From Cirrosporium novae-zelandiae (Eukaryota), in the NCBI GenBank assembly GCA_026023565.1, contig JAPETS010000003.1, positions 248,001-312,000 of the forward strand: a stretch of 64,000 bases of DNA, written 5' to 3'. Positions 3,144-62,325 of the stretch are shown piece after piece. A program made the translations under genes and the position numbers. Under the pieces are notes generated by a model. The model was not told the DNA's origin, ran no database searches, and worked only from the letters and a program-made list of their open reading frames with translations. The first letter of the stretch is position 1; every line of letters begins with the position of its first letter.

Positions 3144-3274
3144 CTTTTCACAGGTAGAAATGAAAGCGACCAGACCAAAAGGTAGAACTAGACATATGAA
3201 CTCAGGGAGACCTTTGAATGGAATTTTTATTCAGAGGTCTCCCCAAGGTCATTTTCATTTATACCCGTCGAAAG
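3144..3274. mobile_element. MITE-like element, TIR type A (short form), TA on both flanks
   Basis: TA|CTTTTCACAGGTAGAAATGAAA ... TTTCATTTATACCCGTCGAAAG|TA, with internal GGGAGACCTTTGAA / TTCAGAGGTCTCCCC. Confidence 0.8.
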
Positions 3275-3508
3275 TAGAATCTATAAAGTACATATAAATA
3301 CAGAGAGGCATAATATCTTCCCCCCCCTTTTCGAACATCTAACTCACTACTTAAATAGATGGTCATATTTCATTGTAGATTTCCTTGATATGTAGTTGTA
3401 TGAGTGTTTGTCTCCTATGGATATCAAAACTTCATAGTAACTATCCTATGTAATCACGTCACCCACCCCTCCCCAGTTTCTAAAGCGCTTATCGGTCCAT
3501 TTCCCGCC

Positions 3509-6500
3509 TTAGTAGGTATACTTGATAACGAACGGATCGCTATACCAGCTCTCATAATCACTCCCTTCACTCGCATCCCCAAAGATCTTTAGTGCTCGAA
3601 CGAGGAACTTGTATGTCCCTGCCGGAACGTACGTCCCATCAGCTAATGTGCCGTACCACTCGCTCGCCCAGGCATTCGAGCGTGGAAGATAAGTTAGAGG
3701 ATAATCATCAATAGGGCCATAGGCGTTGACGCCGAGAATTTCGGTCGTGTTACTATATGTGGAACCAGTCCCATTGACTGGGACGACATCTACGCGGACG
3801 AGCGCGGAACCCATCGCAAGATTGACGATTAGTTCCGGGACGGCAGCCGAGCTGGAGGTGGAATTTGATTTAGAGATTGTAAAGACTTGGCCGGAGGGCA
3901 TGTCTGAGGACGTGGTGCTGAGGACTACATAGGGGTATCCATTCGCTGTGTCTAGGATTGTGGCATTGATCATGGCAAAATCAACGCCTGCGTATGGCAG
4001 GCTGAGGCTGTCGCCGTTGGTGCCGTTTATAGCGATAAAACCACTGTATACGGGTATGCGATCGGTCTCAATATCGGCGGGAGGTGTGAGGGTTACAGAG
4101 ACATTGGCGGAGGAACCAGCAACGATTGTCACGGGGTTGGAACTGAATGAGAGAGTTGCGTAGGAGGTTACCATATCTGGAGGGAAGACCTGCGGAGTCG
4201 TGTCAAGTGCGCTATCTAACGTGTATGCTGTAGCAGCACCCTTGTTTGAGAAGCTGTATGAGACAGAGGTGCTGTCCGTGTTTTTGATGCTGAAGGATAC
4301 TGTACCAAGAAAGTATTCCGTGTCGTTGAATGAAATATGCGGAGTGCTGAGAATTGAAGTTGTATGGGCGGCAGTGTAAGCATCGATGAGACCACCGCCT
4401 TGTTGTGCAACAGGAGCCACGTAGTCGTATGTGTCTGAGCCATCGTTGAAAGCAAGGGCAGAACCCGTTGTGCCTAGTAGGGCATTAATTGTCTCGGGAG
4501 TGATAGAGGAGCCACGGATTTGTTTCAAGAGGGCTACTACACCAGCGACATAGGGTGTTGCCATGGAGGTTCCGGAAAGAACGGCATAACCTCCATCTAC
4601 AAGTGGATAGGTTGAAAGGATGTTGGCACCCGGAGCCGAAATATAAGGTTTGATGTAGTTCTCAAATGTTGGGCCCCACGTAGAGTAGGTGCTCATGTAA
4701 CCACCAGTTTCGGTATTCTCTTCGATTTCGTAGTAGAGTCCAGCATATGCCGTTTCGGTCACTGTGAGCTCAACGTCATAGCCAGCCTTCAGTAGAGCTA
4801 TCCACTCTACGCCTTGGTCCTCAGTTACCATCCCAGCTGCGGTGATGTTCACACTAATGCTTGGGGTAGTTACACCAGTTGCGACATTCTATTCAATGGT
4901 TAGTTAATATACCCCCGAATGGATAGCTAAAGTGGATTTCTTCTTACATTGTAGAATAGAACATATTCGGCACCGTATTCCTTTGCATATGTGATCTTAC
5001 TGTCAAATGTGCAGGTACCTCTCTTAATGAGAACCACTTTACCAGATAGGTCGGGCGTGTCGGTGGGATATGAAGAGCAGCCGTCTGCAGTTACACTCGT
5101 GTTATAGTTGAGTGCCCAAAGTGGTAGAGTTGCATTTGGGAAATCGCCTGTCCCTAACTCATACCCAAATTCTATTTCAGAGGAATTGGACGAGTTCGTG
5201 GTATAGTATCCGACGTTGAGTAGCAAAGGGCTTGTGACACTATCAATGCTTCCAACAGCCGTGACACCATGTCCAGTGGCGGCAGCGCTGGCATAGTATA
5301 AACCCATATCGCCATCATTTCCATTCGCAAGCATGCAAGGCGTTCCTGCGGCAACAATCCTTGAAACGGCGACAGACCAGGCCTCTGCAACTTGGATTAG
5401 CATTGAACATTGCTTTCAACGAGTAGAAATGAAAGCGACTAGACCCAAAGATGGAACTAGAAATGTGATCCTGGGGAGGCCTTTAAAAATCAGTTTTCAA
5501 CAAGAATTTGTTTTGAAGGCTTCCCTAAAGCCTTAAAGACAAATTAATTATCAATATATAGAAATTGATTTTGTTTGAAGGCCTCCTTAAGGTCATTTTT
5601 CTGGGTTCGTTTTTTGGGGTCTGGTCGCTTTCATTTCTACCTGTCAAACGTAGGTTATATGTTAAAAGCCTTACCCTCGCCCCAACCGCTTGCGCCTCCG
5701 ATGGATGCCGTAATGACGTCGGCGCCAGCTTCATAAGCCATCATGAAAGCATCGATCAGCACGTCATCCCCGGCGCTGTCATAGCATCCAAAGACTCTGT
5801 ACATTCCTAATGTTGCATTTGGAACAACTCCCGTGAAGCTATATTCGTTGGGATTTGCACCTACGATACCAGCAACATGTGTGCCGTGACCTTCGCATTC
5901 GGAATAGGGATCGGAGTCTGGTACAGGAGTGTTGGATCCATCATAGTCATCACCGACCAAATCATATCCGTAAGCAATTTTATATCCAGATCCGAATCCA
6001 CCTCCAAGGGCCGGATGATTATAGTCCACCCCAGTATCGACAATGGCAACAAATAAACCTTCGCCAGTATAGCCTTCTGCTCGAAGTTTGTCCACGCCCC
6101 CCATTACATGAGGAGCATAAGTATCATTGGTCAAGTCTTCGTTAATTATATCTGTAGAAGTCGTGGATGCCTTGGTGACCACAGTTGCAGGACGTTTATA
6201 CAAACGAATAGGCCAGATGTCTTTGACCATTGCCATGGATGAAATACGAGAGACAGTGCCCTTCTCATCCTCGAGGTTGTTTAGACTGAAAGAGACACCG
6301 TGAAAAAGAGGATATGAGATGTTGGTGCGAGCAGTTGCTGCAATGCCATGATTGGAGAGACTAGAGTAGAAAGACTGAGATTATCAGTAATTGCTATTCA
6401 GAAGTTTGTTATCAGGACTGAATCCAAGTACACTTGAGCTTTGAGCAGTTTCAAATTCCACAATATAGCCTCCTTTAAGGTGACTCGCTGTTGAATTTAC

Positions 6501-6590
6501 TTCAACAGAACGAACAAGTAATGGAAAGAGTGCAAAGAATGTCAGAAAGAGAGCGACCCTCAATTGGGCAAGAGAGATAACGACAGACAT
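3509..6590 (-). CDS. Secreted subtilisin-like S8 serine protease with PA and Fn3-like domains; 4 exons
   Basis: Signal peptide; catalytic triad IVDTG / HGTHVAG / GTSMATP; PA-domain LIKRGTCTF. Introns at 6375-6431, 5385-5674 and about 4890-4948 restore a single frame. Confidence 0.93.
5413..5650. mobile_element. MITE-like element, TIR type A (long form), inside subtilase intron 2
   Basis: CTTTCAACGAGTAGAAATGAAAGCGACTAGACCC ... GGGTCTGGTCGCTTTCATTTCTACCTGTCAAACG|TA. It aligns in reverse complement with 57504-57753. Confidence 0.88.
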
Positions 6591-7464
6591 GTTGAGTTGG
6601 TAGCAAAGGATTTGGCTAAATTCCGGTAGTGCTGTTCTAGCAGCAAAAAGAAGGCTCTGTATTTATAGCCATGTTCATGACTGTAGCATTGCAGATCGCC
6701 CGAGTCCGCTTTTTACATCTCCTTGTGATCAATGTCGATAGCAAGTGCTATATGTAGCTGACGCGACTACAACGTAACGGTATTAATTATTTTCTGCTTT
6801 CCGGAGATGATTTGACTAGGGTTCAACGATAGTATATCAATTGCCATGAAATATAGGTAGATTATTGGCTGTCGGCAGTCAGTTTCAATTTAATCCATGT
6901 AATGCAGGTCCTGGAAGTGGTTGATCACTGGCGATGCTTATCTTTACAGCGGCCATGTATCTCCAGACCTTGGTCATAGCTTCCGGTAAAGTTGTAACGG
7001 CCCCTAAAAAGGGAGGTAACAGCTTCAGTGTGGAGTATTGTCATTATCAATTGATCCAATAATGGTGCTGAAACAATGTTGATATATATTACCAATTCCT
7101 AAAAGGAGTATTAGATACGTGATAGATGAAAGTGGTTGAGGACTTGGTTAGGACTTGGATAGGATTACGGGTGCCTTGCATTAGTGCATAACTATCTGCT
7201 CGGGTTCCCCACATTGAGTTACTGTACAGTCCACCGAGGGGCTTCTTCACATGTATTTTATTCTTTTGTGCAAATGGTAACTTCACTCTATGGCCAAGAA
7301 ATATAAATTCGAGGTACTGGATAAGCCCACCAGGACCGCCATAGGGCATAACCCCTAAGTGGCCCTTGCGCCCGCTGAGGTGGTTGCTCTGCTGAGCTAC
7401 CCGACTGTCGTGCATCCCACTGATCATCCCTGAACCTGAGGCCTTCGCTTCACACCCTCAAGTT

Positions 7465-7540
7465 AGTTTGTTATTGAACACTGGTTTAGTTTGAAGGCCT
7501 CTCCAAGGTCACTTTTTGGTTCTATCATTTTGAACCTGGG
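7465..7540. mobile_element. Partial MITE (shared core only)
   Basis: GTTTGAAGGCCTCTCCAAGGTCACTTTT matches the core of the other copies; no intact TIR pair. Confidence 0.55.
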
Positions 7541-8384
7541 TAATCTAGGGCATAACTTTAAGAAGGAGCCAGATTGGTTTTAGAATAGTAGGATTAGCAA
7601 AGAATATAATTTTCTAATTACCGGATCCCCGCGGTGCTAAGGAGAGGAGAAGAAAAGCCATCGTCTATGAGAAAAGACGTAGATCAGTACGTAGGCGCCC
7701 ATTGTTCTATTTTATAGAATCAGGCACGTAACTTATACTTTCTAGTACCTGAAAATCCCCTGCCCCAATTATGAGTCCGTCCCTGCTTTTCCCATCATCT
7801 GTTCACGAATGCCAACCTCAAGTAGGGAAACCTTCATCCAATGCGCCATCTTGAATTGTCCCTGTGATATCACTAATTCTTCCGGTGCCCTGTTCTTCAT
7901 TACTTTTTGGCTATCCCTCATATTCATCCATAAAACCTTTTTAGGAAAAGTCGATTGCATCTGGCGAACGATAGTGATGGCATCGCGCATCATAAAGTTT
8001 AGGTCTTGACCCTGATGGAGAGTCATTGGGCGGCTAGCATGGTTGAAGGAGACTATAAAGCTTGGGATCGAGGAGGACGGAGATGATGTCCTAGCTGCCG
8101 AGTGGTTTGGAGAAGAGGCATTTCGTGGTTCTCCACATGTACCCTCTCTCGATTCGATGACTGGTCCCGCGGGTCGCTCAATTAATTCTTCAGGGTGTGG
8201 GAAGCCAGACCAAGACAAGAAATCTTGAAAGAGCCACGCTTCTTGGCTCCGAGAGTTTGGGAAATGTGGAATGGATGGCCAGCGCATGGTGTCTCGGCGT
8301 GGCTAATAATTATTTTATATAGGGGTCTAATAGTTTCCATGGTGAAAGTAGGGACTAGGAGGATATAGATATATTATGTGCTCA

Positions 8385-8706
8385 TGTAACAATCCAGTCC
8401 CTTTCAACCTTAAGGGGACCGAGGAGAGGTTCTCGGCGAAACCTTGGTGAAAGGTGCTTAGCTGGATCAGTGCCAAGCCCGATATGGGAGGGGGGGGGAA
8501 GCTTTGAGATGAGATGGTTTGTTTGTTAACCTTATCAGTTCAATATCTACTTGTCGTACACAGTTGTAGCAGTTAAAAGTTTCTTATTTAACTGCTTCTT
8601 GAGACTATTTTTTTTATATCAAATTAATCATTAGTTGTGGAAATTACTTCTGCTATATTGTTGTGATTGTTATTGGGTCAGTGAGCACATGCCCTAGGTG
8701 GTTACA
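8385..8706 (-). mobile_element. Possible LTR of a decayed retrotransposon
   Basis: TGTAAC...GTTACA termini, 322 bp, AT-rich TATA/polyA-like segment. No target-site duplication; an unexplained ORF (7769-8287, minus) lies next to it. Confidence 0.4.
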
Positions 8707-9332
8707 GTAAATCCTTTCTACTTGTACTCGAGTACTTGTCCACCGTATAAGATTCCATCCTCGGCCTTTAATTCAATAATAGTACACAACCTTGATCCGA
8801 CCGTGCCGATGGTGCTTCCAAGGTTTTCCATCATACTTTCGAAAGTAACTGATTGGAGATTTCAATTTCATATCATGGTACCTTTTACCTGTTTCGGGAT
8901 TAGTTAGTAGAGCGAACAAAAACAAGCAAGGAATCCAAGCTTTTTCCTCGTGGATACTCGAGTAGCCCATCGGTTGTCAGTAGTGTTAGCCCGACAAGAA
9001 TAGGGAAAAAGCCAAGACTTTACTACTAATCCCCCCCCCCCCCCAAAGATCCATTGCCTGTCGTGTGTACAGTATTCGTCCCAATACTCCATTTTCAATC
9101 CCCCCATTACCAACACCTTCACCCGTACAACATCAATTGAGGATTCACCGTTAAACTGCATATGATCTATCTCATGGACCAGCGTCCACATCTGCATCTT
9201 ATAGCTTTGCGATAAGAAGCTCATCGGGTAAAATAAGGGGGAAAGTAATGGCATTTGTCATTTTACATCACGGTTCCGACACTTATATCCACCTGTCATC
9301 CTTCGAGTCTAAATCGGCTTGCTGTGGCTAGA

Positions 9333-11842
9333 ATGTTTGGAGAACCTGAGAACTACGTTGATAAACGCCAGTTATGGGCCCTCTTTCCATCATCCACTAC
9401 CTCTGTCATTGAAGGTCACTGTACACCTTTCACCCTACCTAGCAATGGTACAACCTATTCACATCCTCATCCTCCAGCCTTGACACTTATAATTATATAG
9501 GAGTCCTTTCAATGGGCCCTTCATCATCCATTACCCTTACAACTGATGTTGTCTTTACACCCGAGTGTACCGGTGACGTTGATGACGCTTCCCTCGCTAC
9601 CGCACAAGCTGTCACAAACAATCGCGATCCCTTCTCCGCGTCCGAATCGCCTCAGATATACACCCTTGCTGCGACCACTGTTGTTGCATACACGCTGGTC
9701 ATCATGTTGTTTATAACCCCGCGTACCTTTTTTCTGGGGGGTGCGGGTGGCGGATCATTCTTGGGGGGACGAGGTCTTCTCGGGGGATCTTACGGCTCCA
9801 CTGTTCTCGGCATAGGAGGACGGCCTTGGCTACAGAAAGTTGCTGCGTTGACCGTGGCAATATCATTGACCATTGCATCTGCAGACACCTTTAAGGTTGC
9901 TGAAGCGCAATATGATATGGGATACGTCGATGCGACAAGCCTTACCAGCGCTGTTGTGGGGGGGACGGAACTTTGCGTAATCCGAGTTATTTCGACAACC
10001 TTTTTATGGCTAGCGCAAGTGCAGACACTTGTACGATTATTCCCCCGGCATAAGGAAAAAGTCATTATAAAATGGGCTGGATTTGCCTTGATTGTTCTCG
10101 ATGTCATCTTTGCTAGCCTTGATAATTTTGTCGCTGACACCAAGACGTCTTCTCAGCCGCGGAGTTTTGTCGATGCGATACCTGCCTTGAGTTATTTGTT
10201 CGAGCTTTCACTCAATTTACTATACGCCGCTTGGGTTATTTATTATTCTTTTTGCAAGCGACGTTATGCATTCTTCCACGCGAAGATGCAGAATATTTTC
10301 CTAATTGCTATGTTATCCTTAGCAGCCGTTTTGATACCAGTTGTTTTCTTTGTTCTTGATATTTCAAAACCTAATGCTGCTGGCTGGGGAGACTATGTGC
10401 GGTGGGTCGGATCTGCTGCTGGCAGTGTGATTGTATGGGAATGGGTGGAAAGAATCGAAACACTTGAAAGGGATGAAAGAAAGGATGGAATTCTTGGAAG
10501 GGAGGTTTTTGATGGAGAGGAGATGCTGGAGATTGGGCAATTAGAAGAGATTGACTGGCCTAATCATCCCCATCATAGACCTCCTGGAGATTTCCAGTCC
10601 TTTGGTCAAAGACCGGATGACCGAAACCGTGCCAGAAATTCCCAATCTCACGGAGGATTACCTAGATATCGCATCTCACAGCCCCAGGGATCTTATAGGG
10701 CTCGGGACCAACAGCAGCTACAAGTCTCGTTTGATGGTTTAATGCCAAATTCGCAACAACCAACCCGACCTTCGGCAATTCATCCACCGCAAACGGCATC
10801 ACCTGTTAGTCGAACTGATACCCAAAGTGCAGAGAGCACAATCTACAATGTTCGCTATCACCCAGTTGTCGAACCATCTCCGTCAGTCCCCGAAGGGACA
10901 TCACTTGAAAATACTATAAGAGTAGATGACCCAAATATTCATAGGGCTGTCGATCCGCCGTTGAATACTACCTCTATCCAACCAGAAGGACCTTCAAATG
11001 TCGAGGTTTCTGGTGAAGCTAGCTCTAGTCAAGAACGGGCAAAAAAGGCCAGATGGAATGCAGTGCCTAATCCATTCAAGCGACGTCGAATGTCTCCACC
11101 ACCCGAAGTAGCGACAGTGCAAGAAGGCGGTGAGAACCGTGAACGTGCAGTTCGTGATAGAAATAGCCGTTGGAATCTTCGGTCCAAATTGAATACGCTG
11201 GCCTCAGATCGAAGACCCCATTGGCGAAGGAAAAGTGAGGATACGTCCGTTAATGTACCTCTTCCAATTACCGTAATTCCAGCTCAACCCCGTGGAAGGA
11301 CTTGGTCCCCTTCTGATGGGCCCCTCTCCGCCACACAGGCTGGTGAAAGTCAGAATCCTGCCATTGAGTCTGGTGCCTCTAGACCGCCAGTAGACGAAGA
11401 TCAGCAAGCTGGTGAATCGCAAGTAGGACCATCGACACCTGGTCCACTCCTGCGCAGTCATTCTTCCGGGATGCCGCAATCCTTGGAGGATAGCCCTCAT
11501 ATGTCTCGAAGAGGTACTCTACGCATATCAGAACCACCATCTAGGCGGAGACTGACCATGGAGAATGAAGTAATTCCAGACCAACAAACATCCAATTCAT
11601 GGAATATACCTCACACATCATCTTCAATTCATGGAGAAAGTGGCGGATTGCAACAACCTACTGTTGACGAGGTAGTAACAGCTAATTCGGCGTCTTCAGA
11701 ACCAAATGATGATCCAAGTGGTGAGAATGCTCACTTGTCTGATCATAATATGGTCGATAATTCGACAATCCCGCAGAATGGGTCAAACTACAACAGCTCC
11801 CAAGATATAGTGGAGAGCAGTGGGACTGATCATAGGCGATGA
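9333..11842 (+). CDS. palH: PalH/Rim21 seven-transmembrane ambient pH sensor; exons 9333-9447 and 9501-11842
   Basis: CTPFTLPSNG N-terminus, RDPF.AS..PQ, GGRPWLQKVAAL, WLAQVQTLVRLFPRHKEK, VWEWVERIE..ER.E.KDGILGREVF and a long disordered tail. Confidence 0.93.
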
Positions 11843-14808: not shown

Positions 14809-14969
14809 TCTAATTTATATTATGAAAATTAAGCGATGATAATTTCTCACTGGGTTTGGTTAAACATGCCATTCAATTCATGCCATTTAATTCTTTTATG
14901 AAACTCCTAGACCTAAATATGTCCTTATCATGAAGCCGCAAAGAAACAGTTCCCGTTGTTATAGCAAGT

Positions 14970-21717: not shown

Positions 21718-22102
21718 TAAGGTTTGAAAGCGGTGTCACGTGGTTGGGTTAATTACATCATTTCCCTGGATTAGCTGTGTTTAGCTAGCTCCCGTTAATT
21801 AGTCTATATATTTCCTCGAATTACATGTAGGGCTAAGGAATGTGACCTTGGGGAGGTCATTGGAAAAATCAGAATAATTCTCCATGGCTGGTTTTGCATG
21901 GTTTATATTTGGTATTTCAGCCCCTATTAATAGATATATATAGATATATATATAAGACATACCGCCTTGAGCTCTCTCTCTTGCACAAAATAAGATTCTA
22001 AAACATGTCTACAAATGAATAGCTTCAACTAGTAGACTTCGGGACGGAAACCAACTTTACAGCATAGCAACAACATGTCGAACAATCTCTCAGCCCGCTA
22101 TA

Positions 22103-22251
22103 CTTTCGACGGGTAGAAATGAAAGCGGCCAGACCTCCAAAATAAAACTAGAATAATGACACTAAAGAGGCCCTCAAACAACATCAATTTTCAATAATAA
22201 TTCAATTGAAGGCCTCCCTAAGACCACTTTCATTTCTTCCCTCGTCAAAAG
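22103..22251. mobile_element. MITE-like element, TIR type A (short form), TA on both flanks
   Basis: TA|CTTTCGACGGGTAGAAATGAAAG ... CTTTCATTTCTTCCCTCGTCAAAAG|TA, with internal GAGGCCCTCAAAC / TTGAAGGCCTCCC. Confidence 0.85.
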
Positions 22252-26256: not shown

Positions 26257-26466
26257 CCATGCAGGTCCCAAAATAAAGAGGACTCATAAATTCCTTTCCC
26301 TGAGCCAGCCTACGTGCCTACCCAACACTACGCCCACCCTCCAAAAAAAGATCCTAGGGAGGCCTTCAAACACAATCAACTCTGAATTTCAATAATAATT
26401 CAATTTGAAGGCCTCCCCAAAGTCCTAGAATATTGTGAGTCCCGTTTATTTTGGGACCCGCGTGCC
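26257..26466. mobile_element. MITE-like element, TIR type B
   Basis: TA|CCATGCAGGTCCCAAAATAAAGAGGACTCA ... TGAGTCCCGTTTATTTTGGGACCCGCGTGCC|TA, with internal GGGAGGCCTTCAAAC / TTTGAAGGCCTCCCC. Confidence 0.82.
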
Positions 26467-27157: not shown

Positions 27158-28969
27158 CTACCTCATGTCCTTCTTCCGCACCCATGGACTCCCTCCACCA
27201 CCACCATTTCTGTTGCCACCCTTGCTCTTGTGGGGATTCTTGTCCGGGTACTTTTTCCAGCAGCGGTTTTGAGTATGGCCCTGCTTGCTACAGTAATAGC
27301 ACGTTATCGGTGCCTTCTGTTGTTGTTGGGTGGCGGTGGTGGTGGTGGTGCCGTATGCTGCAGTCTGCTGTGATGTTTGCGACACCAGGGGCGACGGTGT
27401 CTCGGCCGTCGATGGAGCAATATCCCCTGATCTCTGTGACTGCCGCTGCTGCTGCTGCTCCTCTGGACAAGGATTCGTAACCCCCCAGACATTCCAGGTG
27501 GACACTCGTCCATCATCAGGCCCCAAAACATCCTCCACCAACTCATCCAAGGTCTTGAACTCTGTGACACTACTTAAAAACTCTATAGTATTACTATAAT
27601 ACTTGATAAGGAACTCCACATGTACCTCCTCAAACTTGCAGTTTTCGCACTTTGCTGTACCCTCAGCTGACCAATGAGCCACCTGTTTCTTGGCAAATGC
27701 AAACCCGAACGACGTACCACAACAATCCATGATTCGGAATTCATTTGGAGTCTGGATCGAAGGGAGGCGACCGTAGGTTGAAGTATTCTCGAGATTCTTT
27801 TTAACCTCATGAAGGCTGGTATTATCTTCCCTGTAACACCAGGCTTGGTGCTGCTTTCCAGTCTTTTCTCCGTTATAGTTCCTCGGGCGTATTGGCGTTG
27901 GCAGAGCAGGCATGACTGGCCTTGTGGACTGTTCAAATCTGAGGTAAAGGCGTTCAAGAATGGGCAAAATAGGAGCATAGGGATGCATCCTTATAATCTT
28001 GTCCCATGCTTCTTTCTTGCTTGGGTGCAAAATGGTTTCCATAAGGCCTCCATCCACCTCAAGTCGAATCCTCCACAAGCAGGCATTTAAATCTACCCCC
28101 TGTAGACCATCTAACTCGTCGCAGAGGTCATCTGAGTCGGGGTCATAGTGATAGCCATCATCTACGACAGTCGGAAAGACCATGCCGCCAAATTGCAACA
28201 TAAATGTCCGTAACTCATCCAGCGTGAAATGATTGCCCGGGTTTCCCCAATGATTTAACCTTGGTAGAAATTGATAACTCCAGGCCGATCTTTCCTCTAC
28301 CAAACGTGCGAGTTTAGGGTAGATTTTAAACAGGTCACCGCATGTTACTAGGAACCCGAAAGCCATCCTTGCCGGGTTTATTTGACTAACATCTCCGTTA
28401 GGCACTTCGAATCTCACATCGAAAGTAGGCATCCCTTTTACAGCCCAAAAGTTCTGCTCGTAATGATTGAAGACATCTTCATAATTGATGAGACGATTGT
28501 TGAAAATATCAACGTGGAGGATGTTTGGGAGACTTGCGAGGATAAGTCTAACTAGCGGCATATTTAACCGCGGAATACCTTCCAGCTTCAGGTAGCGCAA
28601 GCAACCTGCTTCGCTCGTCAACGTTCGCAGGGCCCTCGCATCTTGAATGGGGTGGTCGGAACAATCCCCGAAGACTGTCAGGAAAGTAGATTTTCCTGTT
28701 GAGTCCCGAGGCTCTAAATCGTCTTCCTCGGGGCGACGGTAATAATAATTGCCAGGGCAGGCTTCGTTCGTCACGCACAGTACCTTTCCTGGGTATTTTT
28801 CGACTAATTCCGACATGTAAATATAACCATTCCAGGCTTCTACCCTTTTGTAGAGGGCACGGGAAAGGTGCGCGAGGATATTTCGCTCGTCAGAGGATAT
28901 CCTCTTCAGGATATCTTCTAAAATCTCGGCTGGAAGCCTTTCCAAATTACTTACGCGACGAGTCGACAT
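27158..28969 (-). CDS. Intronless 603-aa protein with an N-terminal F-box-like motif, LRR-like segments and a C-terminal CCHC zinc knuckle
   Basis: LERLPAEILEDILKRI; LRYLKLEGIPRL and LPNILHVDIFNN; CYYCSKQGHTQNRC followed by a Gly/Lys tail. Confidence 0.7.
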   Translation of the reverse strand: MSTRRVSNLERLPAEILEDILKRISSDERNILAHLSRALYKRVEAWNGYIYMSELVEKYPGKVLCVTNEACPGNYYYRRPEEDDLEPRDSTGKSTFLTVFGDCSDHPIQDARALRTLTSEAGCLRYLKLEGIPRLNMPLVRLILASLPNILHVDIFNNRLINYEDVFNHYEQNFWAVKGMPTFDVRFEVPNGDVSQINPARMAFGFLVTCGDLFKIYPKLARLVEERSAWSYQFLPRLNHWGNPGNHFTLDELRTFMLQFGGMVFPTVVDDGYHYDPDSDDLCDELDGLQGVDLNACLWRIRLEVDGGLMETILHPSKKEAWDKIIRMHPYAPILPILERLYLRFEQSTRPVMPALPTPIRPRNYNGEKTGKQHQAWCYREDNTSLHEVKKNLENTSTYGRLPSIQTPNEFRIMDCCGTSFGFAFAKKQVAHWSAEGTAKCENCKFEEVHVEFLIKYYSNTIEFLSSVTEFKTLDELVEDVLGPDDGRVSTWNVWGVTNPCPEEQQQQRQSQRSGDIAPSTAETPSPLVSQTSQQTAAYGTTTTTATQQQQKAPITCYYCSKQGHTQNRCWKKYPDKNPHKSKGGNRNGGGGGSPWVRKKDMR

Positions 28970-30229
28970 AGTGATGGTAATATTAATGTGAGTGATTATA
29001 ATTAGAAGAGAGGTCTAAGTTGTCTGAGACTTAAGGTGGAGGCGTAGATGGAAAAGGCTTAAAGAGAGACGTATAAATAGAATATAGATTAGGTGAAAGA
29101 AGGAGGAGATCTTGAGTTGAAAAGTGGTGTAGAGAGAAGCCTTGAAGATAAGAATGTTGATGAGATCTAGAGATTCTGGGAGGGGAGAGGTGATATATAT
29201 AGGATGTAAGGGAGCCCAGAAGCAGTAAGTGCAATAAAAGTGATGGGATCGGTGACCTTAGAATTGGGCAGCTGTGATGGATGGGGATCACTGCCTTCCC
29301 AACCGTGAAATATTGTCACAGCGTCGGGTGTAATTGGATGGCTTTCTAGCAAACTCTGGGTTTGTTTCAACATTTTCTTAGTATATCACAGCTCTAATTC
29401 ACATATAGAATCAAGTTTGGTCCAGATTACACTATTGCAAACTTTGCATCAGGGCGTCAGGGCGTCGGACAACACACAAATGAGACATTTGACAGACAGA
29501 AGAAGTCGGGGATTTGCTGTTAAATTAGGTATTCGCAGGACCAAAGCTGGAGAGGACCTACAAACTTTGATAGTTACCTTTTCTCTTATAGAGAGGCGAA
29601 AGTGTCATTCTCCAATCACCGCATCGCCGAGACCACAGATCTAATCTGAAATGACTGTATCGATGGATAAACCACCTACTGTAAATGGACAGCATTTAAA
29701 ACTTCAGTCCAGCCCCGTAAGAAATCATATGAAACTCAAAAGCAATGTTGATATATGTTGTCTTTAAACAGCAGTTGAAGATTACGGGTTATATAAAGAC
29801 ATATGATGCATGATAAGAAAAAACGGCACAATGAGTGCAAGGAGCATAGCTGGTTACAGAAATAAGGGATATTTTTTTTTCTAAGATAAGGGTTGAATAA
29901 CATTCATATCGTATATATATATGTATATTATAGGTATATATATGTGTGTGTACATGTACATATGTTGCAGACAAAGTGGGCGCTTGGCAATGTCCAATAC
30001 TAGCGCCCAGGCTTCCTAGGGCTCCTGGCTCCTGGACCTCTCTGGGGTCAAGCCAAGCCAAGATCTTACCCCAACATAACCTACACGTGCCACCTACTAA
30101 CCCTACTAACCCCGGACTTTTAGCCACATTGTTCCTGCAGAACCCCGAGAACCGATAGACTATCATTTCCCCCCAGCCCGCGTGAGTTCCCAATGGTTTA
30201 ATTATCGACCAGGATGGACACCAACCATG

Positions 30230-30493
30230 GGCCGAGGGTGGTTCGCATATTTGATGGTGCATTATATCTTTCGATAAAAATGAAAATGAAGGCGACCAGA
30301 TCCAGAAAAATGACCTTGGGGAGGCCTTCAAACAAAACCGATTTTTAATGAAATTTCGATTTCAAGGGCTCCCCAAAGTCTTAAAGGGCAAAAATTAGTT
30401 GCGGATAAATCTATATGAAAACTGATTTTGTTTGAAGGCCTCCCCAAGGTCTTTAAGCGACTGCACCTTTAAACATGCGAGCCACCCTCGGGC
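30230..30493. mobile_element. MITE-like element, TIR type C enclosing a type-A interior
   Basis: GGCCGAGGGTGGTTCGCATATTTGATGGTGCA ... TGCACCTTTAAACATGCGAGCCACCCTCGGGC|TA. The interior AAATGAAGGCGACCAGA..GGGGAGGCCTTCAAAC..GTTTGAAGGCCTCCCC parallels the long A copies. Confidence 0.85.
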
Positions 30494-37010: not shown

Positions 37011-37043
<33 letters not shown>

Positions 37044-37612: not shown

Positions 37613-37921
37613 GTCCGAGGGGGGTGGTTCGCATGTTTGGAGGCCTCCCCAGGATCTTTTTTGGGGGGTAGGCAGGTAAGCTGGCTCAGGGAAAGGAATT
37701 TATGAGTCCTCTTGATTTTGGGACCCGCGTGCGTGTTTAAATAGTTGCTACAATGTTCTACATTGATCTTGGTCCCTGAAAATAATACTTTCCGCTCCTG
37801 ATAAAGCAGCCAATCATGACCATCTAAAGGAGGTGGGCACGTTTGATGGTACTGTACATGTACATTACACAGACGCAGCATTAAGCAACCGTACCTTTAA
37901 ACACGCGACCCCTCCTTGATC
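37613..37921. mobile_element. Chimeric MITE-like locus: C-type left end, core, B-type right end (37732), then a degenerate C-type right end (about 37880-37921)
   Basis: GTCCGAGGGGGGTGGTTCGCATGTTTGGAGGCCTCCCC ... ATGAGTCCTCTTGATTTTGGGACCCGCGTGC, then TTAAGCAACCGTACCTTTAAACACGCGACCCCTCC. Confidence 0.75.
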
Positions 37922-37949
37922 TCTCTCCTCTCTCCTCTTTAAACCATGA

Positions 37950-44713: not shown

Positions 44714-44823
44714 ACTGAGAGGTGGTTCGCATGTTTGAAGACCTCCCCAAGGTCACTTTTCTAGATTTAGTCGTTTTTATTTTTAAGCGACTGCACCTTT
44801 TAGCATGCGACTCTCCTTTGGAC
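44714..44823. mobile_element. MITE-like element, TIR type C (short form)
   Basis: GAGAGGTGGTTCGCATGTTTGAAGACCTCCCCAAGG ... TTTAAGCGACTGCACCTTTTAGCATGCGACTCTCC. It is the reverse-complement counterpart of 51979-52087. Confidence 0.75.
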
Positions 44824-47380: not shown

Positions 47381-47539
47381 GCCACGCGGGACTCACATTT
47401 ATTTTTATCTTTTGGACTTTAAAGAGGCCTTAAAATTAAATTGTTACAGAAAACTGATTTTGTTTGAAGGCCTCTCTAGAAACATTTTTCCGATTCATCT
47501 TTTGGGTGATGAGTCCTGTTTATTTTGGGACCCGCGTGC
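47381..47539. mobile_element. MITE-like element, TIR type B, TA on both flanks
   Basis: TA|GCCACGCGGGACTCAC ... GAGGCCTTAAAA .. GTTTGAAGGCCTCTC ... TGAGTCCTGTTTATTTTGGGACCCGCGTGC|TA. Confidence 0.8.
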
Positions 47540-51978: not shown

Positions 51979-52087
51979 GCTCGAGGGTGGTTCGCATGTT
52001 TAAAGGTGCAGTGACTTAAAAATGAAAGCGATTATATCTAGAAAAGTGACCTTGGGGAGGCCTTCAAACATACGAACCACCCTTGGC
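51979..52087. mobile_element. MITE-like element, TIR type C (short form)
   Basis: GCTCGAGGGTGGTTCGCATGTTTAAAGG ... GGGGAGGCCTTCAAACATACGAACCACCCTTGGC. Confidence 0.82.
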
Positions 52088-53977: not shown

Positions 53978-56900
53978 ATGAAATTCGCAGCTGAACCAGC
54001 CGTAGCCTTGCTAGGCAGCTTGAGCTTGAGCGTCACCCTTGCTCAGGCAAGCAGTCCGGTATGTTTTACCCCATTAGCAGAACATGAAGATGACATAAAA
54101 CTAATTTTCAATTTGTACCTTGACAGTTTCCAGGAACTACATACTCCAAATATGTGGACTCTATAGCTGCCGCTGGCGCTCGGGCAAACCAGTCGAGTCC
54201 GCCATCATACCCATCGCCATGGGGGTCCGGCACGGGAGATTGGGCTGAGGCCTACGAAAAAGCGAGAGCTTTTGTCAAGCAGATGACCTTGGTTGAGAAA
54301 GTCAATTTGACGACAGGCACAGGGTAAATTATTCATGCATTGCTATATGAACACCCATTGCACTTTTCTTGGCTCTAATGCGTTTCATAGTTGGGAACAA
54401 GAAGCTTGTGTTGGTCAAACGGGATCAGTACCGAGACTTGGGCTCCGAGGGCTTTGTTTGCAAGGTATAACCACCAAGAATGGCCACATGAATTGATCAG
54501 CTAAAACCATGAAGATAGTCCTTTGGGAGTCAGAGACACCGATTGGCAATCGGCATTTCCTGCTGGCGTGACAGTTGGTTCGACATTTGACCGGAAGCTC
54601 ATGTATGAACGCGGTTATGCTATGGGCGCAGAACACAAGGCGAAAGGCGTCACAGTGGTCCTCGGACCTGTTGCTGGGCCCTTGGGAAGAACAGCGGAAG
54701 GTGCACGTAACTGGTGAGTTTTACGAATTGAATTATATACTCTCTTGCGACTAACGTCTTGCGCAGGGAAGGATTTGGTTCTGATCCAGTACTTGCGGGC
54801 ATTGCCATGGAACAAACAGTCAAGGGAATTCAAGATGCCGGGGTTGTTGCTTGTGCCAAGCATTTCATTGGCAATGAGCAGGATCATTTCCGTCTCGTCT
54901 CAGAAACCGTAGACTACGGCTGGAATATTAGTGAGAGTTTTAGTGCCAATATCGACGACGCTACGATGCACGAGGTGTATCTTTGGTATTTATACTCTAT
55001 TCTCCACAACATGAATCTTGCTAAATCAGTCATAGGCCATTTGCCGATGCAGTGCGTGCTGGCGTTGGTTCGGTTATGTGCTCTTATAACCAAGTTAACA
55101 ATAGCTACAGCTGTCAGAATTCCTATCTCATGAATCACCTCCTGAAGGGCGAGCTTGGCTTTGAAGGGTTTGTAGTGAGTGACTGGCCAGCACAACATGC
55201 CGGTGTCAGCAGTGCATTGGCCGGACTCGATATGACAATGCCTGGGGACTATGATTGGGATAATCTTGGAAAGACATTCTTTGGTTCCAATCTTACATTA
55301 TCTGTTCTCAACGGGACTGTTCCAGAATGGCGCATCGACGATATGGCTACTCGAATAATGGCTGCATTTTTCAAGGTCGGGCTTACGGTTGAACAACCGC
55401 CGATTAATTTCAACTCATTCAATCTTGACACCTACGGAGCATTGCATTATGCGGCCGGAGAAGAATACGGATACGGGCAAATCAACTGGCATGTCGATGT
55501 TAGAGGGAACCACAGTAACATTATCAGAGAAGTGGCAGCCAAAGGAACTGTCCTTCTGAAGAATGTTAACAATGCCTTGCCGCTGAAGAAGCCAAGATTT
55601 TTAGCTATTGTTGGTGAGGACGCTGGTCCGGCCAAGTATGGGCCAAATGGATGTTCCGACCGTGGCTGCGATGATGGTACTCTGGGTATGGGATGGGGCA
55701 GTGGGACTGCAGCCTACCCGTACATGGTTACGCCGCAATACGCAATTGAGGCCCATGCCATTGCCGATGGTACCATTGCTCAGACAATTACTGATAATTA
55801 TGCCTATGATGAGATCACCACTCTTGTCAGCCAAGTTGATGCCACATTGGTCTTTGTGAATGCCGATGCAGGCGAGTGGTACATTGTGGTCGACGAGAAT
55901 TATGGTGACCGGAATAATCTGACACTTTGGGGAGGCGGGGAAGAGCTTATTAAGAACGTCACGGCAAGTTGTAATAACACGATTGTCATTATGCACACTC
56001 CTGGGTAAGTCTTTCTGCTATGGATCATGATGCCTCCTATAAGAATGAGAAGACGGTTAATGGACACTTTACTGACTGACAACAGCCCCGTTCTCGTATC
56101 AGACTGGTACGAAAATCCCAACGTAACTGCCATTCTTTGGGCTGCCCTTCCCGGCCAGGAATCAGGAAATTCAATTGTCGATATTCTTTACGGTGATATC
56201 AACCCAGCTGGAAGAACCCCATTTACTTGGGGCAAAACGCGCAGTGACTACGGCACAGACGTCCTATACGAACTCAACTGCCAGGCTCCATGCGCACCAC
56301 AAATCAATTTCCAAGAGGGTAAATTCATCGATTACAAGGCTTTTGATAAGGTTGATGTGGATCCAATTTACGAGTTTGGATTCGGCCTCTCTTATACCAC
56401 CTTTGCGTACTCTGATCTAAACATCGAGAAGCTCTCCGTAGCAGACTACACCCCAACAACCGCCAACAGTACTGCCGCACCGGTGCTAGGAAATTATAGC
56501 ACGAATCTTGCCGACTACCAATTCCCCCAAAACCTGACTAGAGTTGCTGGGTTCCTCTACCCGTGGCTCAACTCCACCAACGCCTCACTTGCCTCCGAAG
56601 ATTCTACATATAACGATGGAAATAACGAGTATATACCCACAGGCGCATTGGATGGCTCATCACAACCGATTAATCCGGCGGGTGGTGCACCAGGTGGCAA
56701 TCCAGCATTGTGGGACGTCATGTATATTGTCAATGCCACAATCACAAACAATGGTACACTTGATGGCGACGAAGTACCACAGTTGGTAAGTAATTTGATT
56801 TTCATCAGCTCCATCGAAGCGGAATGCTAATCTTTCTTAATTTATAGTACGTGAGCCTCGGTGGTCCCGATGACGCCAAGGTAGCCCTGCGAAACTTTGA

Positions 56901-57072
56901 CCGTTTAACAATCGCAGCGGGAGAATCTGCAACCTTCTCCGCTAACCTGACACGTCGTGATCTATCCAACTGGGATACGGCATCGCAGAACTGGGTCATT
57001 TCAAACTATACCAAGACTGTCTATGTCGGGAGCTCTTCTAGGAAGCTGCATCTTTCGCAGACGCTGGCTTGA
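53978..57072 (+). CDS. Secreted GH3 beta-glucosidase (BglA-like); multi-exon
   Basis: Signal peptide, [52 protein letters not shown] nucleophile, [15 protein letters not shown] and a C-terminal Fn3-like domain. Confidence 0.96.
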
Positions 57073-57503
57073 ACGAGATGATCACTTGAGAGAGATTTAA
57101 GGGGGAGGAGACTACCCCTTTTTAGAAATCTGGACTCATTTTGTCTAAATATTTATTGTATAATGATTTTGATCAATGGAAAGGCATTATGAATACAACG
57201 TTTAACAAAACTACGTTCATCTAATAGAATTTAAAAACAGGTCCACTTTTCATTACCCTTTTCATCCACAGAGAAAAGGACTCCGTTCTCCCTCAAGGTA
57301 GGATCTGAGGGTCACGCAAACCAAAGCAGTGACCTACGGATACAAACCAAGATCAAGTTTTTCTAGACATCCCACGTAGAAACTACCCATGGATAGCATG
57401 ATACTCACCAGCTTTCTCTTGTTCCTTCCTACTCCAACCTTATGATAGATAACTCATGCCCCAAAATCCATATTCTTGCTGGAATGAATCTCTCTCGTCC
57501 ATA

Positions 57504-57753
57504 CTTTCAACGTGTAGAAATGAAAGCGGCTAGACCCTAAAAAAAACGAACCTAGAAAAGTGACCTTAAGGAGGCCTTCAAAACAAAATGAATTTTTATA
57601 TATTCACAACTAATTTGTCTTTAAAGCATTGGAGAAACCTTCAAAACGAATTGTTGTTAAAAAATGATTGTGTTTTTAAAAAAAAAATCTTCCCAAGATT
57701 ATATTCTAGTTCCATTTTTGGGTCTGGTCGCTTTGATTTCAACCTGTCAAAAG
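57504..57753. mobile_element. MITE-like element, TIR type A (long form), TA on both flanks
   Basis: TA|CTTTCAACGTGTAGAAATGAAAGCGGCTAGACCC ... GGGTCTGGTCGCTTTGATTTCAACCTGTCAAAAG|TA. Confidence 0.88.
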
Positions 57754-58178
57754 TAGGTACAGTCCGTATCAGACGAAACAGTGGTGTAATGACAAAGAGC
57801 CTTTTATGGTGTCGATATTTGTAGAGAGTGGATTTCGGAGTTTTGATGGTGTGTGAGCTGGTCTTTTTTTTTCAACGGGTTTAGGTTTTTATTTAGGTCG
57901 GTGCTAATTAGAAAAGGAATGGGATTAGATAGACCACCTAGGTAATTAATTAATTAATCCATTTATGCGAAGTTGGTTGATCAGACCTACTTACTCACTC
58001 CTTAAATATAACCCGCCTATCGTAATATAACAGTTCAACTGATCGGTCATAAAGTTTTTTTCTTTTATTCTGTGGCCGACGAGACTGAGCCTCCGTTTTT
58101 TTTGATAAATCAATCAGACTCAACAAAGGGTTGATCTAGCCCGGCCTGGCCTATTCCTCAACGCTACTGCTGCTGCTC

Positions 58179-59615
58179 TTATTTGGCTTTGGACGATATT
58201 AACCCTTGTCGCAACCAGATAATCTCTTGTTTCCTTGTGCGTTCCTCGACGCTCAGTGTGTATCTCCTATGGGAGAAAACTACTTTGTAGCTAAATAACA
58301 CCTTTTCTGCCCTGTTAAGGAGGTTTTGGTTTTAGTTAAGGATACTAATGTTTTTCTTGTCGTTTTTGTTGTTGGAGGAGGAAAGGGGTTATAAGACTTA
58401 CGTTTCTGTGCCGATCTCAAGGTCTTTCATTCTTTCGTGGTCCCAGATTGCATAACCCCATCGTCTTAAACGCTCTATAATCCTATCGGGCGAGAAAGTT
58501 GCGAACGGTTTTGGGGGCCTTAAATCTTTCATTGCCCATAGCCAACCGTAATTGTACTTTTCAGCATCATCATGAAACCCCACTTCAGGATGACTAGTCT
58601 CTGGCCATTCGTATATGGGCCGGCCGTGGTATGCCGGAATTGTCCTTAGAGCTTCGCTCAAAACATTCTCCGGGGGCTCCCTGCTTCCGAGAAGATCAAA
58701 CCTATTTTCCGAGGTATCTGCTGCCAGCATCGCTTTGATTGTGCTTAGGCCACGTGTTAAGCAACCTTCTAGCCACCCATCTTGGAAATAGATACGACTG
58801 TCACGAGAGAAGAACCAGTCGTCGTTGTTCCATCTACTCTGGGAGCCACCTGGATCGATTGGATGTGGCCCATGCTCTAAAAAGTCCTGCATAAAATCAT
58901 CCTCAACTTGGTTGACATAATCCGTCAGTCTTTCTATAAGGTAACTTCGTACGCAAAGGAATTCTTCAAGCTCCCAATCTTCAAGGCGTTGCAAAAAAGC
59001 TTTCGACTGCTCTTCCAAAGCGATCTCGTCCTGGGGTGATTCAGGAGTATAAAAAATTTGTCCGTAGAGCTCCATACGATAAAATGCTCTTACTAGTCGA
59101 GAATGTTCCGTCTGCGATAAAACAAAGGCGCTTTTTGCATCTGCTGCTCCGGAGGAGTACTTAGACGACGACCGACAGGTTTTAAGACGAATATCGTTCT
59201 CAATATTAGCAAGGCGGGTGATAGCAAAGTCAGAAATAAGATATTCGACGATTTCATGGAACTGAACAAGAGCCTTTAAGATTTCTAGGGAGAATTTGTA
59301 AGGTATCTTAGGTGATTTCTGTCGAAAGTCTTCTAGAGATGCGAGCACGGCTGTACCATCGCGTCGTGGTCCTCTCTGCTTGCGCTGCTCAAGTGCATCC
59401 ACAGCAAGCGGTAAAGCGGCGGAAGTAATATAGTTTTGCGCTATGTGCGATAAGATAGCTGCCTTGGACAACCTATAAACTTGGAAATAGCGGGGAGAAG
59501 CATTGAGCAAGGCGTATAGTGATTTTATATTTGGGATTTGTTTTAGTATCTGAAATTGTATCTCGGGTGGCAGGAGTTCGAGACTCGTGGCATCGCAAGA
59601 ATTATTGCGACTCAT
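58179..59615 (-). CDS. F-box-like fungal hypothetical protein; 2 exons
   Basis: LELLPPEIQFQILKQIPNIKSLYALLNASP, EHSRLVRAFYR.ELY, WELEE..CV and LRRWGYAIWDHERM. A predicted intron at about 58313-58401 adds a short last exon. Confidence 0.8.
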
Positions 59616-59927
59616 GGCGAATACCTATCTTCGGATTCGAGGTTGCTGCAATCAAGTTTGGAGGATGTTGAGGCAATACCTAGAGGTGGAAATAGTACGC
59701 TAGTCTATAGATTGTATAGCGTACGTACTTTATTTTCGTTAGCCCTACCACGTCGTCTTGTAGTTTCAAGCCGAGGGACCAAACAGACTTATTTATCAAT
59801 ATTGAAAATTAATGGATGATCATTTTTCTTGGGGGAGGGGAACGGATGTTGGGGATGTGGGCGGGGTATATTGAGGTCTTTCGCCTCGACTAGCCTCTGT
59901 AGTTTATCGTTGATGGAGCGGAGTACC

Positions 59928-60785
59928 CAGCGAAGGGAATGAACTAGACCAGCCTTTTTTATAGACGGACCAGACTTTGATTGCCCAAAATAAGGTGTTG
60001 TAAATCGAGACGTAAAATGTGTTATACGACTGTATGATGTGACCAACCAGACCGAACCCCTTGGTCTAGTCGGTCTGGTCTATTCCCTTCCCTAAACTGT
60101 TTATGTGACTATATACCCCGCGAGGAAACCACACAGCAGTTCCATAACACTATCTACGATTGACAGGACCACCTTCTTTGCGATCTTGTTCTTTGAGGCC
60201 ATGGTTGTTTGTGTACTTGGTATGTTTTAGAAAGGAAAGAGGGAACGACGGTGGAAAGAAGGTTGTACTGTACATGCACCTTCATACCATATTATCTCCC
60301 AAAAATGGAGGAAAGATCTTCCAGAGCTCTTTTCTAGTCCACCAATTTCTAGGTGCTGTGGCTTCCTAAGTCGGTTACCTTAAATAAACACATGCCGTTG
60401 CTGATTTCAGAAGCAGAAGCGGAAAATTGTCGGGGTCTGGGAACCCCGATATCGGTCCATGCCAACGTTGTATGGCTTCCGTGGTGTTGACGTTCGTAGA
60501 AGCCTCAGTGCATGAGAAACGGTGATCAGGGGCACAACGGGTGTGTATTCGGGGCCATATTGGGGGCGCGGGGGGACCTTTTTGGCTTTAGATTAAACTC
60601 AAAATTCCAAAACTCCGAACTCCGACATCCCCCAAAACCTCAACACCACAAAAATCTTCCCCCCACCATATAATTCGTATTTATATAGACCGGATAGACC
60701 TTGGGCAATCAAAGTCTGGTTGGTCTACGGTCTATAGACGGTCTAAGGTAGACCGTCTATTTGGTCTAGTCTATTCCTTTCACTG
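59928..60785. mobile_element. Second non-autonomous TIR family (type D) with CAG...CTG ends and AGACC/GGTCT-rich subterminal repeats
   Basis: CAGCGAAGGGAATGAACTAGACC matches the reverse complement of GGTCTAGTCTATTCCTTTCACTG. There is a perfect 20-bp inverted match 59969-59988 / 60701-60720 and an extra right-end copy at about 60063-60093. Confidence 0.65.
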
Positions 60786-62146
60786 CTCTGAATGTCATAC
60801 TGAGCCCCCACTCCCCTATCAAACACCGAGACTCTTAATGAAAGCATCGGTTGAAGCCTCTACAAGACGGTCCGCAGAAAGAAAATATCACATCAGCTGT
60901 CCTACTAAATATAAAACAGGTTATCCCAGTTGGAATTCTGCTGCTGCTGTTAGTAAGACAAGATTTGGAAGCCTGGTGGAAGTTATCATCAAAGCCTTTG
61001 CTGCTAAGATTCTGGTTTATGTATTGTATGACTATTGGCGGACCGACGCCAAAACTCCCGTTCAATTATGCGACTAGCGACCTAACGGGATGGATCAGAT
61101 TAAGACTTTGGGCTTATAAGATTCATCAGACGTGATCGGCCAGACGTTACCCTTTAGCTATGATTCTGCCACGTTCTCGAATGATTTAGTTATGTCCACC
61201 TAAGGTGGCCCTGGTTGCAGAACAAACTCGCTGACAGTTAGATCTGCCTACCATGGGTAGGAGTAATGGGCTTCTAGGAATAAACCTTGAGATTGGCCCA
61301 CAAATATAACTTGTTTAGGATCACCACCGATATTATGTTGGTTCGGACCCATTCTAGAGCTGGCCGTTGGCCTAGGAATTCAGCATTCTGTAGCAGTCAT
61401 GGAGCACTCGAGAATCCAAAAATTTTGACACCGAGGCTTTGTTCGTCAGTATATCATCACATGGAGCAGTAGCTCGTCTTAACGCCAATGATTATCTTGA
61501 GGAACAAGGGGGGAAAGGTTCATTACTTGGCTATAATGACAATAGAATTATGCGCATCCCGAAAGTATGCACCATTGTAGTAAGGGCTCTTTGTCATGCC
61601 AGCGGCAAAGCCTTATATTCACTGATCAATAGTTTATCGAGGCCATCTATTAAGCCCTTTCAAACGTACCGTATCGCCCCCCTATGAATAAACCAGAACA
61701 GATTTGTTGGTTCTGTTTCAGCTTCGAGCAGTTTTCGCTCATGCTATCCCCTCTGTTAGGCTGCATGAGGTTTAACTCCCGAGGAGCATGGGTGTACTCT
61801 TCTCCAGGAACTGTCCTAAATAAGTTTAATATGTATAGCCAATCCCTTTGTCTATCAGCAAATTCCCTCCTAAGAAATATATGTCAATAGTCAAGTTAAG
61901 CATATTTATAAGCGGGCGCACAATGACTTACCTAGGTAGTCAAGTGTCGGTCCACAATCACGATTCAATTCCTTGAGATAGCCCAACTCACAAATCGAGA
62001 GGCATGAATGGTTTTATTGCTGGGATATAGCTGAGGTACCGCAAATCTTAGCTCTCCATTCAAGGTTGCACATATGAAAGCCTAAGATATTCAGGCACAA
62101 CAGGCCTCCCCATAGCTAAGATAGCCAAGCAAATAGCCGCTCTCTA

Positions 62147-62325
62147 CTTTCGAGGGGTAGAAATGAAAGCGACCAGACCCCAAAAATGAACCCAGAAAAG
62201 TGACCTTCAGGAGGCCTCCAAATTAAATTTTTATTGAAAACAGATTTTTTTTGAAGGCCTTCCTAGGATCACTTTTCTGGGATCACTTTTGGGGGTCTAG
62301 TCGCTTTCATTTCTACCGTCAAAAG
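62147..62325. mobile_element. MITE-like element, TIR type A, nearly fully palindromic, TA on both flanks
   Basis: TA|CTTTCGAGGGGTAGAAATGAAAGCGACCAGACCCC ... GGGGTCTAGTCGCTTTCATTTCTACCGTCAAAAG|TA. Confidence 0.9.

Follow-up and report, generated by a model that had tools for sequence, protein, structure and literature searches.

Three families of fungal miniature elements probably came to share one interior by nested capture

Short hairpin elements are scattered over a 64-kb stretch of DNA (hereafter, the window; G000:C52:248001-312000) in the 31.4-Mb assembly of the fungus Cirrosporium novae-zelandiae. They are MITEs (miniature inverted-repeat transposable elements) of three types, A, B and C, which have terminal inverted repeats (TIRs) of their own around a common core. 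We consider it probable that a historic series of nested captures, with deletion and amplification, gave these three families one shared interior. The observations that carry this reading are direct: the types leave different footprints at their target sites, core-less forms exist, C composites hold a nested A end, further nestings are flanked by duplications, and the cores cluster by end type.

Results

The hairpins and their core in the genome

A first-pass annotation, written from the letters of the window, had listed 11 hairpin elements and two relics; all were found within 1–3 bases of the places it gave (Table 1). At no more than two mismatches, the core 15-mer has 15 matches in the window, where 0.14 are expected and where none of 100 shuffles gave as many. 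Genome-wide it has 324 matches, compared with 41 for the reversed control; the end motifs have 121 (A), 62 (B) and 64 (C), with 0, 1 and 0 for the respective controls. Since 15 of the 324 core matches fall in 0.2% of the genome, where about 0.7 would be expected, the window is a local hot spot, roughly twentyfold over the mean. The earlier estimate of one element per 5–6 kb thus describes the window and not the genome. Elements cluster regionally at about 243–339 kb of G000:C52 and also at 411–537 kb of C107. Local hopping was rejected for the A copy at 5413, its best match lying on another contig (G000:C107:495587, 89% identity).

Copies were studied in DNA fetched around the listed matches and merged into 179 segments (598 kb). 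Every B and C end listed falls within this set; the 121 A ends are represented by 100, and the 324 core matches by the first 100 in the list. Element counts from it, here and below, are lower bounds. Contig C47 was left out as a duplicate of C35 at the places compared; the two have matches at identical coordinates and look like a single sequence filed twice. A profile found the core-bearing cassette in 64 of the 78 A elements, in 30 of the 48 B and in 23 of the 49 C, but overlooked a single core motif that some of the cassette-negative elements hold. The claim that the core accompanies all three end types thus stands genome-wide.

All three types are short (typically 52–417 bp), non-coding, dispersed in many copies, bounded by TIRs and flanked by target-site duplications, as MITEs are. 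Several size classes occur within each end type, and copies are 61–87% identical within seven groups. That the hairpins are instead regulatory or structural elements of the host is scarcely credible: most are intergenic and the window is a hot spot, as such a role might suggest, but variable target duplications match on both sides, copies have entered an intron and other repeats, and no fixed position relative to genes is kept.

Three footprints

Duplication lengths of 1–10 bp were scanned at seven offsets per end type, and each type gave a single best solution; duplications of 6–10 bp and other offsets received no support. Type A has TA/TA flanks in 22 of 29 two-ended copies, and in the window in four of five copies with TG/TA in the other, a TA duplication and a fixed TA terminus being indistinguishable without an empty site. 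The termini of type B are CAC..GTG, its start lying a single base inward of the boundary first drawn. An exact, variable 5-bp duplication flanks 10 of 23 copies, rising to 14 at no more than one mismatch (shuffled flanks, 0.5 and 1.6; none of 20000 as high), and a one-base correction of a single mis-set start brings the exact count to 11 of 23. The duplication has the consensus CCWGG and 62% GC, the terminal C, A and C are conserved at 0.96, 0.97 and 0.88 over 75 ends, and the TIR is 36–40 bp long with an A run at 31–33. Type C starts CGAGGG, has termini CG..CG, and shows an exact 3-bp duplication G[GC]C (GCC/GGC) in 15 of 22 copies compared with 7.2 in the control (p 5e-5), a count that takes in the off-consensus GCT/GCT at 51982; a 1-bp duplication within a fixed G-C context is the weaker alternative.

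The transposase sets the length of the target duplication, and the three lengths therefore imply three enzymes. Each of the three types is a MITE family in its own right, with a footprint of its own. In the annotation, the first G/C of the B end and the GCC/GGC before the C end belong to the target duplication and not to the TIR. Its single TA-type Tc1/mariner system did not survive: the TA flanks of Tc1/mariner and pogo elements are found only with A, whereas B has 5-bp and C 3-bp duplications. It had also called the end sets unrelated, but in its interior C is related to A, the composite at 30233 carrying an A terminus and arm.

Type B has both the CAC..GTG termini and the GC-rich 5-bp duplication of Transib elements. 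Its TIR suits the length of about 38 bp known from Transib, but the A pair at 34-35 is out of register. Judged on these features, we would put the membership of B in Transib at somewhat better than an even chance, and we use the label Transib-like. We rejected hAT5 for B, which has C at position 3 and not the G reported for hAT termini (PMC1131882, as far as that source describes them). Around the lone hAT relic that we found, the 3.2 kb of fetched DNA show no B end.

For type C, PIF/Harbinger was rejected: the 3-bp length fits, but G[GC]C is not the TWA-type duplication of that group, and a search for DDE_Tnp_4 (PF13359) gave no match. A 3-bp duplication of the form TWY is given for EFT-8m of Epichloe in the part of PMC3227409 used here. 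The CMCT clade (EnSpm and others) was rejected as well, since C ends CG..CG, contrary to the CA..TG termini that most of the clade has in the portion of PMC12730594 drawn on here. The footprint of C fits none of the transposon groups checked here.

Core-less forms and the origin of the core

Every type has core-less forms. Nine empty C hairpins of 52–88 bp were aligned, as were four B without a core, of which two are flanked by perfect 5-bp duplications; core-less A is represented by copies of 815 and 295 bp. The core is thus common yet dispensable. A role as transposase-binding module, as first suggested, is unlikely, since core-less B and C moved and left duplications. Nor was a free, stand-alone core found: among 39 clusters with core but no end motif, none has ends or a duplication of its own, and those beyond chance look like A, B or C copies that have decayed. 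Within A, the core forms the inner part of the long arm and the middle of the element.

Nesting is frequent here, and the 815-bp core-less A (L227; G000:C45:353546-354360) itself contains another repeat, of about 355 bp, which matches at more than 12 other places. This A has 151-bp arms, and beside it lies an extremely AT-rich stretch (7–28% GC) with a 957-bp foldback.

The consensus of the C composites begins with an empty-C arm and TATA-C; then come a complete A terminus carrying two changes, the A arm, three cores, the other A arm minus its outer ~13 bases, and an empty-C arm. By this order, the C composite is an A insertion in the loop of a C. In the composite at 30233 of the window, the A terminus and arm nested inside occupy about 30270-30334; this composite has a folding z of -10.5, and a 190-aa frame overlapping it has no Pfam match. 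In the short C form (44716 and 51982 in the window, with a third copy at G000:C40:488810), core and C arm share CCTTCAAACA, and the form arose by a deletion that joined the core to the C end or arm through this shared run. On one side, B composites retain the A arm from position 32; on the other they pass straight into the arm of core-less B, and neither A TIR is left; at 47383 the A arm is fused directly to the B inner TIR.

Cassette tree, nestings and hybrids

A first tree was built from 64 long cassettes with automatic labels, and a second from 61, with ten rows relabelled by hand from their arms and three dropped. In the second tree the end label changes three times (minimum 2; shuffled mean 26.3; none of 200 shuffles as low). 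A branch with 99/96 support unites the C cassettes with five A copies, and the B cassettes lie in two groups amid other A copies. The approximately unbiased test rejected a single A clade (p-AU 0.044) but not a single B clade (0.29). We read this tree as indicating clustering by end type and not the exact order of branching. Most likely, it implies one capture by C and one or two by B, followed by amplification.

C elements are nested in B as well. A whole C composite lies within a B arm at C71:41671, with GGC/GGC flanks where uninterrupted B arms have one GGC, and a mini-C lies inside a core motif at C40:296708 (GCT/GCC flanks). Furthermore, the first core motif is split by a C hairpin in 13 of 16 long-B-type copies examined and is intact in C46:94004. 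An empty C was inserted into the core of a B lineage. The centre of the core, AGGCCT, matches the preferred target of C, although such 5-mers are common.

Among 140 cassettes, 62 have both arms typed, with 27 AA, 22 BB, 11 CC and 2 mixed, and one of the two mixed cassettes is a truncated C composite. Four hybrids were recognized by eye: at 37616 of the window (C–B), C39:210926 (B–C), C55:19272 (C–B, among the rows dropped from the second tree) and C81:47471 (C–A). Three were tested by BLAST and are single-copy in the fetched DNA, and none of the hybrids has a duplication. These copies with mismatched ends, crossing over in the core, show that the core is a passive substrate for recombination. 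The recombination module of the first-pass annotation is right as to the crossover point; the core acts as passive homology, and the products are dead ends.

Other features of the window

The window is fungal and gene-dense, with subtilase, PalH, heavy-metal ATPase and GH3 genes among others. The PalH/RIM21 gene (window 9443-11842, plus strand) is at most 56% identical to any relative among the matches listed, and the named relatives among these are lichen-forming and Eurotiomycete fungi. This suggests that the host belongs to a taxonomically isolated lineage of Pezizomycotina ascomycetes.

Table 1. Hairpin elements, relics and the element-bearing intron, in window coordinates
Feature	Position	Strand	Remarks
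Type A MITE, short deleted copy, 131 bp	3144..3274		Flanks TA/TA; core more decayed than 15-mer threshold
Predicted intron (GT..AG) of subtilase (S8/PA/Fn3) gene	5385..5674	-	Splicing predicted from sequence
Type A MITE, 238 bp, long form bearing three core motifs	5413..5650		Flanks TG/TA; intronic
Relic, one core motif and A-type inner arm, without TIR	7459..7531
Relic, decayed inner arm and core	21836..21872
Type A MITE, 149 bp	22103..22251		Flanks TA/TA; between RPA3 and heavy-metal ATPase genes
Type B composite, 207 bp	26258..26464		Perfect 5-bp duplication CCTAC
Type C composite, three core motifs, 258 bp	30233..30490		Duplication GGC/GGC
Hybrid: C end, one core motif, B arm, B end	37616..37731		Single-copy in fetched DNA; no duplication
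Short C composite, 105 bp	44716..44820		Inverted relative of 51982; decayed ends
Type B composite, 156 bp	47383..47538		Perfect 5-bp duplication CTAGC
Short C composite, 104 bp	51982..52085		Duplication GCT/GCT (off-consensus)
Type A MITE, long form, 250 bp	57504..57753		Flanks TA/TA
Type A MITE, short form, 179 bp	62147..62325		Flanks TA/TA

The subtilase intron would be 290 nt long with its A element and about 50 nt without; its phase 1 is compatible with both exons, and the element is 24 nt away from an in-frame donor and 28 nt away from an in-frame acceptor. An introner was thus rejected, the element lying inside an older intron whose predicted splice sites are external to it.

A separate foldback element of about 860 bp was also seen at 59928-60785. 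It has nested inverted arms (59928-59951/60762-60785 and 59962-59988/60701-60727) and GACC-rich words that recur, with similar ones found at L247:906-972; the element has no match to the A, B or C elements. Two long single frames on the minus strand (27158-29014 and 58398-59624; 603 and 405 aa from ATG) have no Pfam match and form singleton clusters. Their N-termini resemble what we take to be F-box motifs.

Discussion

A stepwise history

The history that we propose runs as follows. A (TA, Tc1/mariner-like), B (5-bp, Transib-like) and C (3-bp G[GC]C, unclassified) would be non-autonomous cut-and-paste elements, each moved in trans by its own transposase. First, an empty C would have received, at a TA in its hairpin loop, an A copy of one subfamily. 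Of the two inner A ends, one would have been deleted and the other mutated, and the composite would have spread with C ends. Second, a core-less B would have taken in an A copy of another subfamily; both A TIRs would have disappeared, perhaps by insertion and microhomology deletion, or else by gap repair off an A template, and the product would have spread with B ends. Third, one B lineage would have received an empty C in the GGC of its first core motif and would thereafter have spread. Fourth, the common core, and the run shared by the core and the C arm, would have led to occasional deletions (the short C form), while ectopic crossovers at the shared core would have left single-copy, hybrid-ended dead ends. 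What we infer in this history are the transposases, the direction from A to B, the mechanism of repair, and the stabilization of the composites by loss of the inner A ends.

Several points, taken up in this and the next three paragraphs, weigh against this history. First, no A TIR survives in B, which makes the case for the A-to-B direction indirect, and A and B share one boundary with the interior, at CCCAAA. This boundary would be accounted for by a fourth foldback element of greater age, consisting of the CCCAAA arm and the cores, which A and B ends captured independently and which C took later through A. It would also suit the finding that the 815-bp core-less A shares exactly positions 1–31 with core-bearing A, and the fact that the interior is itself an inverted repeat. 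We nevertheless regard such an element as unlikely: none of the 39 core-only clusters is a stand-alone copy with its own ends, the B cassettes fall within the diversity of A on the tree, and a TA-C/GA-C microhomology deletion of a whole A insertion yields the same B junction.

Second come points from the trees and from conservation. End-label changes in the first tree (64 rows) number 10 for A, 6 for B and 2 for C. The tree alignment has 120 columns, the bootstrap is unsettled, support for the C group is 48/68 and most forks are weak. The two groups of B cassettes could represent a second exchange, and one row dropped from the second tree (C55:19373) is a C–B hybrid, so core-mediated exchange does happen. 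In addition, core columns are less diverged than the remaining interior in five of five groups, but more diverged than the TIRs in four of five; for G/C columns in short B, divergence is 0.04 in the core compared with 0.10 in the other interior. This conservation can be explained by ascertainment and hairpin-templated repair, as we see it, and an enhancer role is also possible.

Ongoing module swapping, by which gene conversion or gap repair would repeatedly exchange interiors with the core as favoured exchange point or transposition enhancer, would draw on these data. It would also draw on the four hybrids that cross in the core, on the greater number of core-bearing than core-less B, and on the internal enhancer of a rice Stowaway MITE that is cited in the part of PMC3227409 used here. 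We think it improbable, for the following reasons. Arms are concordant in 60 of the 62 two-armed cassettes, with a truncated C composite as one of the exceptions. Every hybrid is single-copy and without duplication, and each end type has a spacer haplotype of its own. Core-less B and C transposed, the three footprints imply three enzymes, and the conservation test is biased by how the copies were found and by hairpin-templated repair. Thus, the swapping proposed in the first-pass annotation holds in that sequence passed between end sets, but with 60 of 62 arm pairs matching and three label changes among 61 it was not routine.

Third, neither parents nor empty sites came to light. No transposase bounded by A, B or C ends was found in searches that are lower bounds and in which MULE, CACTA and other families were not searched. 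The relics found are four of DDE_1, two of DDE_3 and one of hAT, and their fetched flanks contain no end of type A, B or C. The RAG1-like domain PF12940 had no match, nor did its control give one, and a true Transib transposase also gave no domain match. Twenty single ends were followed inward (6.5 kb each, one to the contig end) and showed no partner end or long repeated body, their frames not being scanned with Pfam. No orthologous empty site was found either; the stretch is present only in the probable source sequencing run, no RNA run is listed as containing it, and runs X2 and X3 do not cover it. The long B pattern had no match in metagenomes and the C pattern none in viral contigs, and four outside matches to the short B pattern, all without further similarity, were taken as chance.

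A single autonomous element, of which all types would be deletion products with A, B and C as nested sub-termini, could explain why A is nested in C and the C hairpin in long B. It is very improbable, given the three duplication lengths. In addition, C in B interrupts the core instead of flanking A, the C and B cores derive from different A subfamilies, and no long element with these ends is among the six DDE_1/DDE_3 relics, the hAT relic and the 20 single ends.

Some of the relics merit description. Four of them (L221-L224) are of pogo/Fot1 type and about 1.85 kb long; their TIRs measure 54–67 bp, and TAG/TAA stops occur in frame. L224 contains an insertion that interrupts it and has a relative in the DDE_3 relic L225. 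The stops of the pogo-type relics, and the AT-rich DNA by the 815-bp A, are as expected under repeat-induced point mutation (RIP). The MITEs are mostly below about 420 bp, which is near the size below which RIP is weak. Since CpA bias is not strong in the MITEs, RIP was rejected as the source of their divergence.

Known systems

The junctions and duplications are still readable, and they offer a stepwise view of how small elements of different superfamilies trade interiors and found families despite RIP-wrecked long parents. There are practical consequences: clustering by overall similarity would fuse three superfamilies into one family, and the shared core provides dispersed homology for rearrangement. 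In rice, MITEs are known to nest in other MITEs, and composites were amplified after nesting, one becoming a family. For an interior shared by MITEs of three footprints or superfamilies, no precedent was found in our literature search, which excluded most subscription journals.

The Transib-like ends of B are the most notable by-product. B resembles non-autonomous Transib elements in its CAC start, 36–40 bp TIR and GC-rich 5-bp duplication, and in a palindromic target preference, CCWGG in B and CASTG and CAWTG in Transib, as far as the latter are described in PMC1131882 and bioRxiv 10.64898/2026.08.26.747230. It differs in having its A run at 31–33, where the conserved A pair of Transib is given at 34-35 (PMC1131882); the form of the Transib TIR is described as labile in the relevant part of bioRxiv 10.64898/2026.08.26.747230. 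Transib was scored absent from fungi in one survey (PMC5751038, in the part drawn on), and 20 fungal Transib-like proteins, with Erysiphe among the species, are reported in the corresponding part of PMC9435367. The B footprint is a lead for Transib in ascomycetes. A bolder proposal, which we regard as doubtful, is that B is a Transib-derived MITE of a filamentous ascomycete and C an undescribed group with G[GC]C targets, both having expanded by capturing the palindromic core of A. With the core as a transferable hairpin enhancer and landing pad, the three superfamilies would evolve as one exchanging network.

The MITEs EFT-3m to EFT-30m of Epichloe festucae, as described in the part of PMC3227409 used here, are alike in several respects. 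They are fungal, 80–520 bp long and degenerate (49–90% identity there), fall into several superfamilies told by TIR and duplication, have parents that are mostly missing or RIP-damaged, and include one nested copy and chimeras from recombination between copies. However, EFT-27m shares its TIR and differs in its interior, the opposite of the present case, and that part of the account has no interior shared across superfamilies and no 5-bp or G[GC]C class. In the available text on Anopheles P-MITEs (PMC1562414), interiors unrelated to the parent are ascribed to gap repair from an ectopic template, and AgaP2-P12MITE combines ends from two subfamilies. There, both ends belong to one superfamily and the hybrid was amplified, whereas the hybrids here are single and without duplications. 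A similar kind of event is described for the grapevine Pack-MITE mPifvine-4.1, which took an internal part of the Mila repeat without its ends, the composite then being amplified (PMC2817404, in the portion drawn on). That case has one donor and one recipient; the present one has one donor, two recipients of different footprint, and nesting between the recipients. The elements described here most likely represent an unusually clear instance of the known process that makes nested and composite MITEs, and not a new swapping machine.

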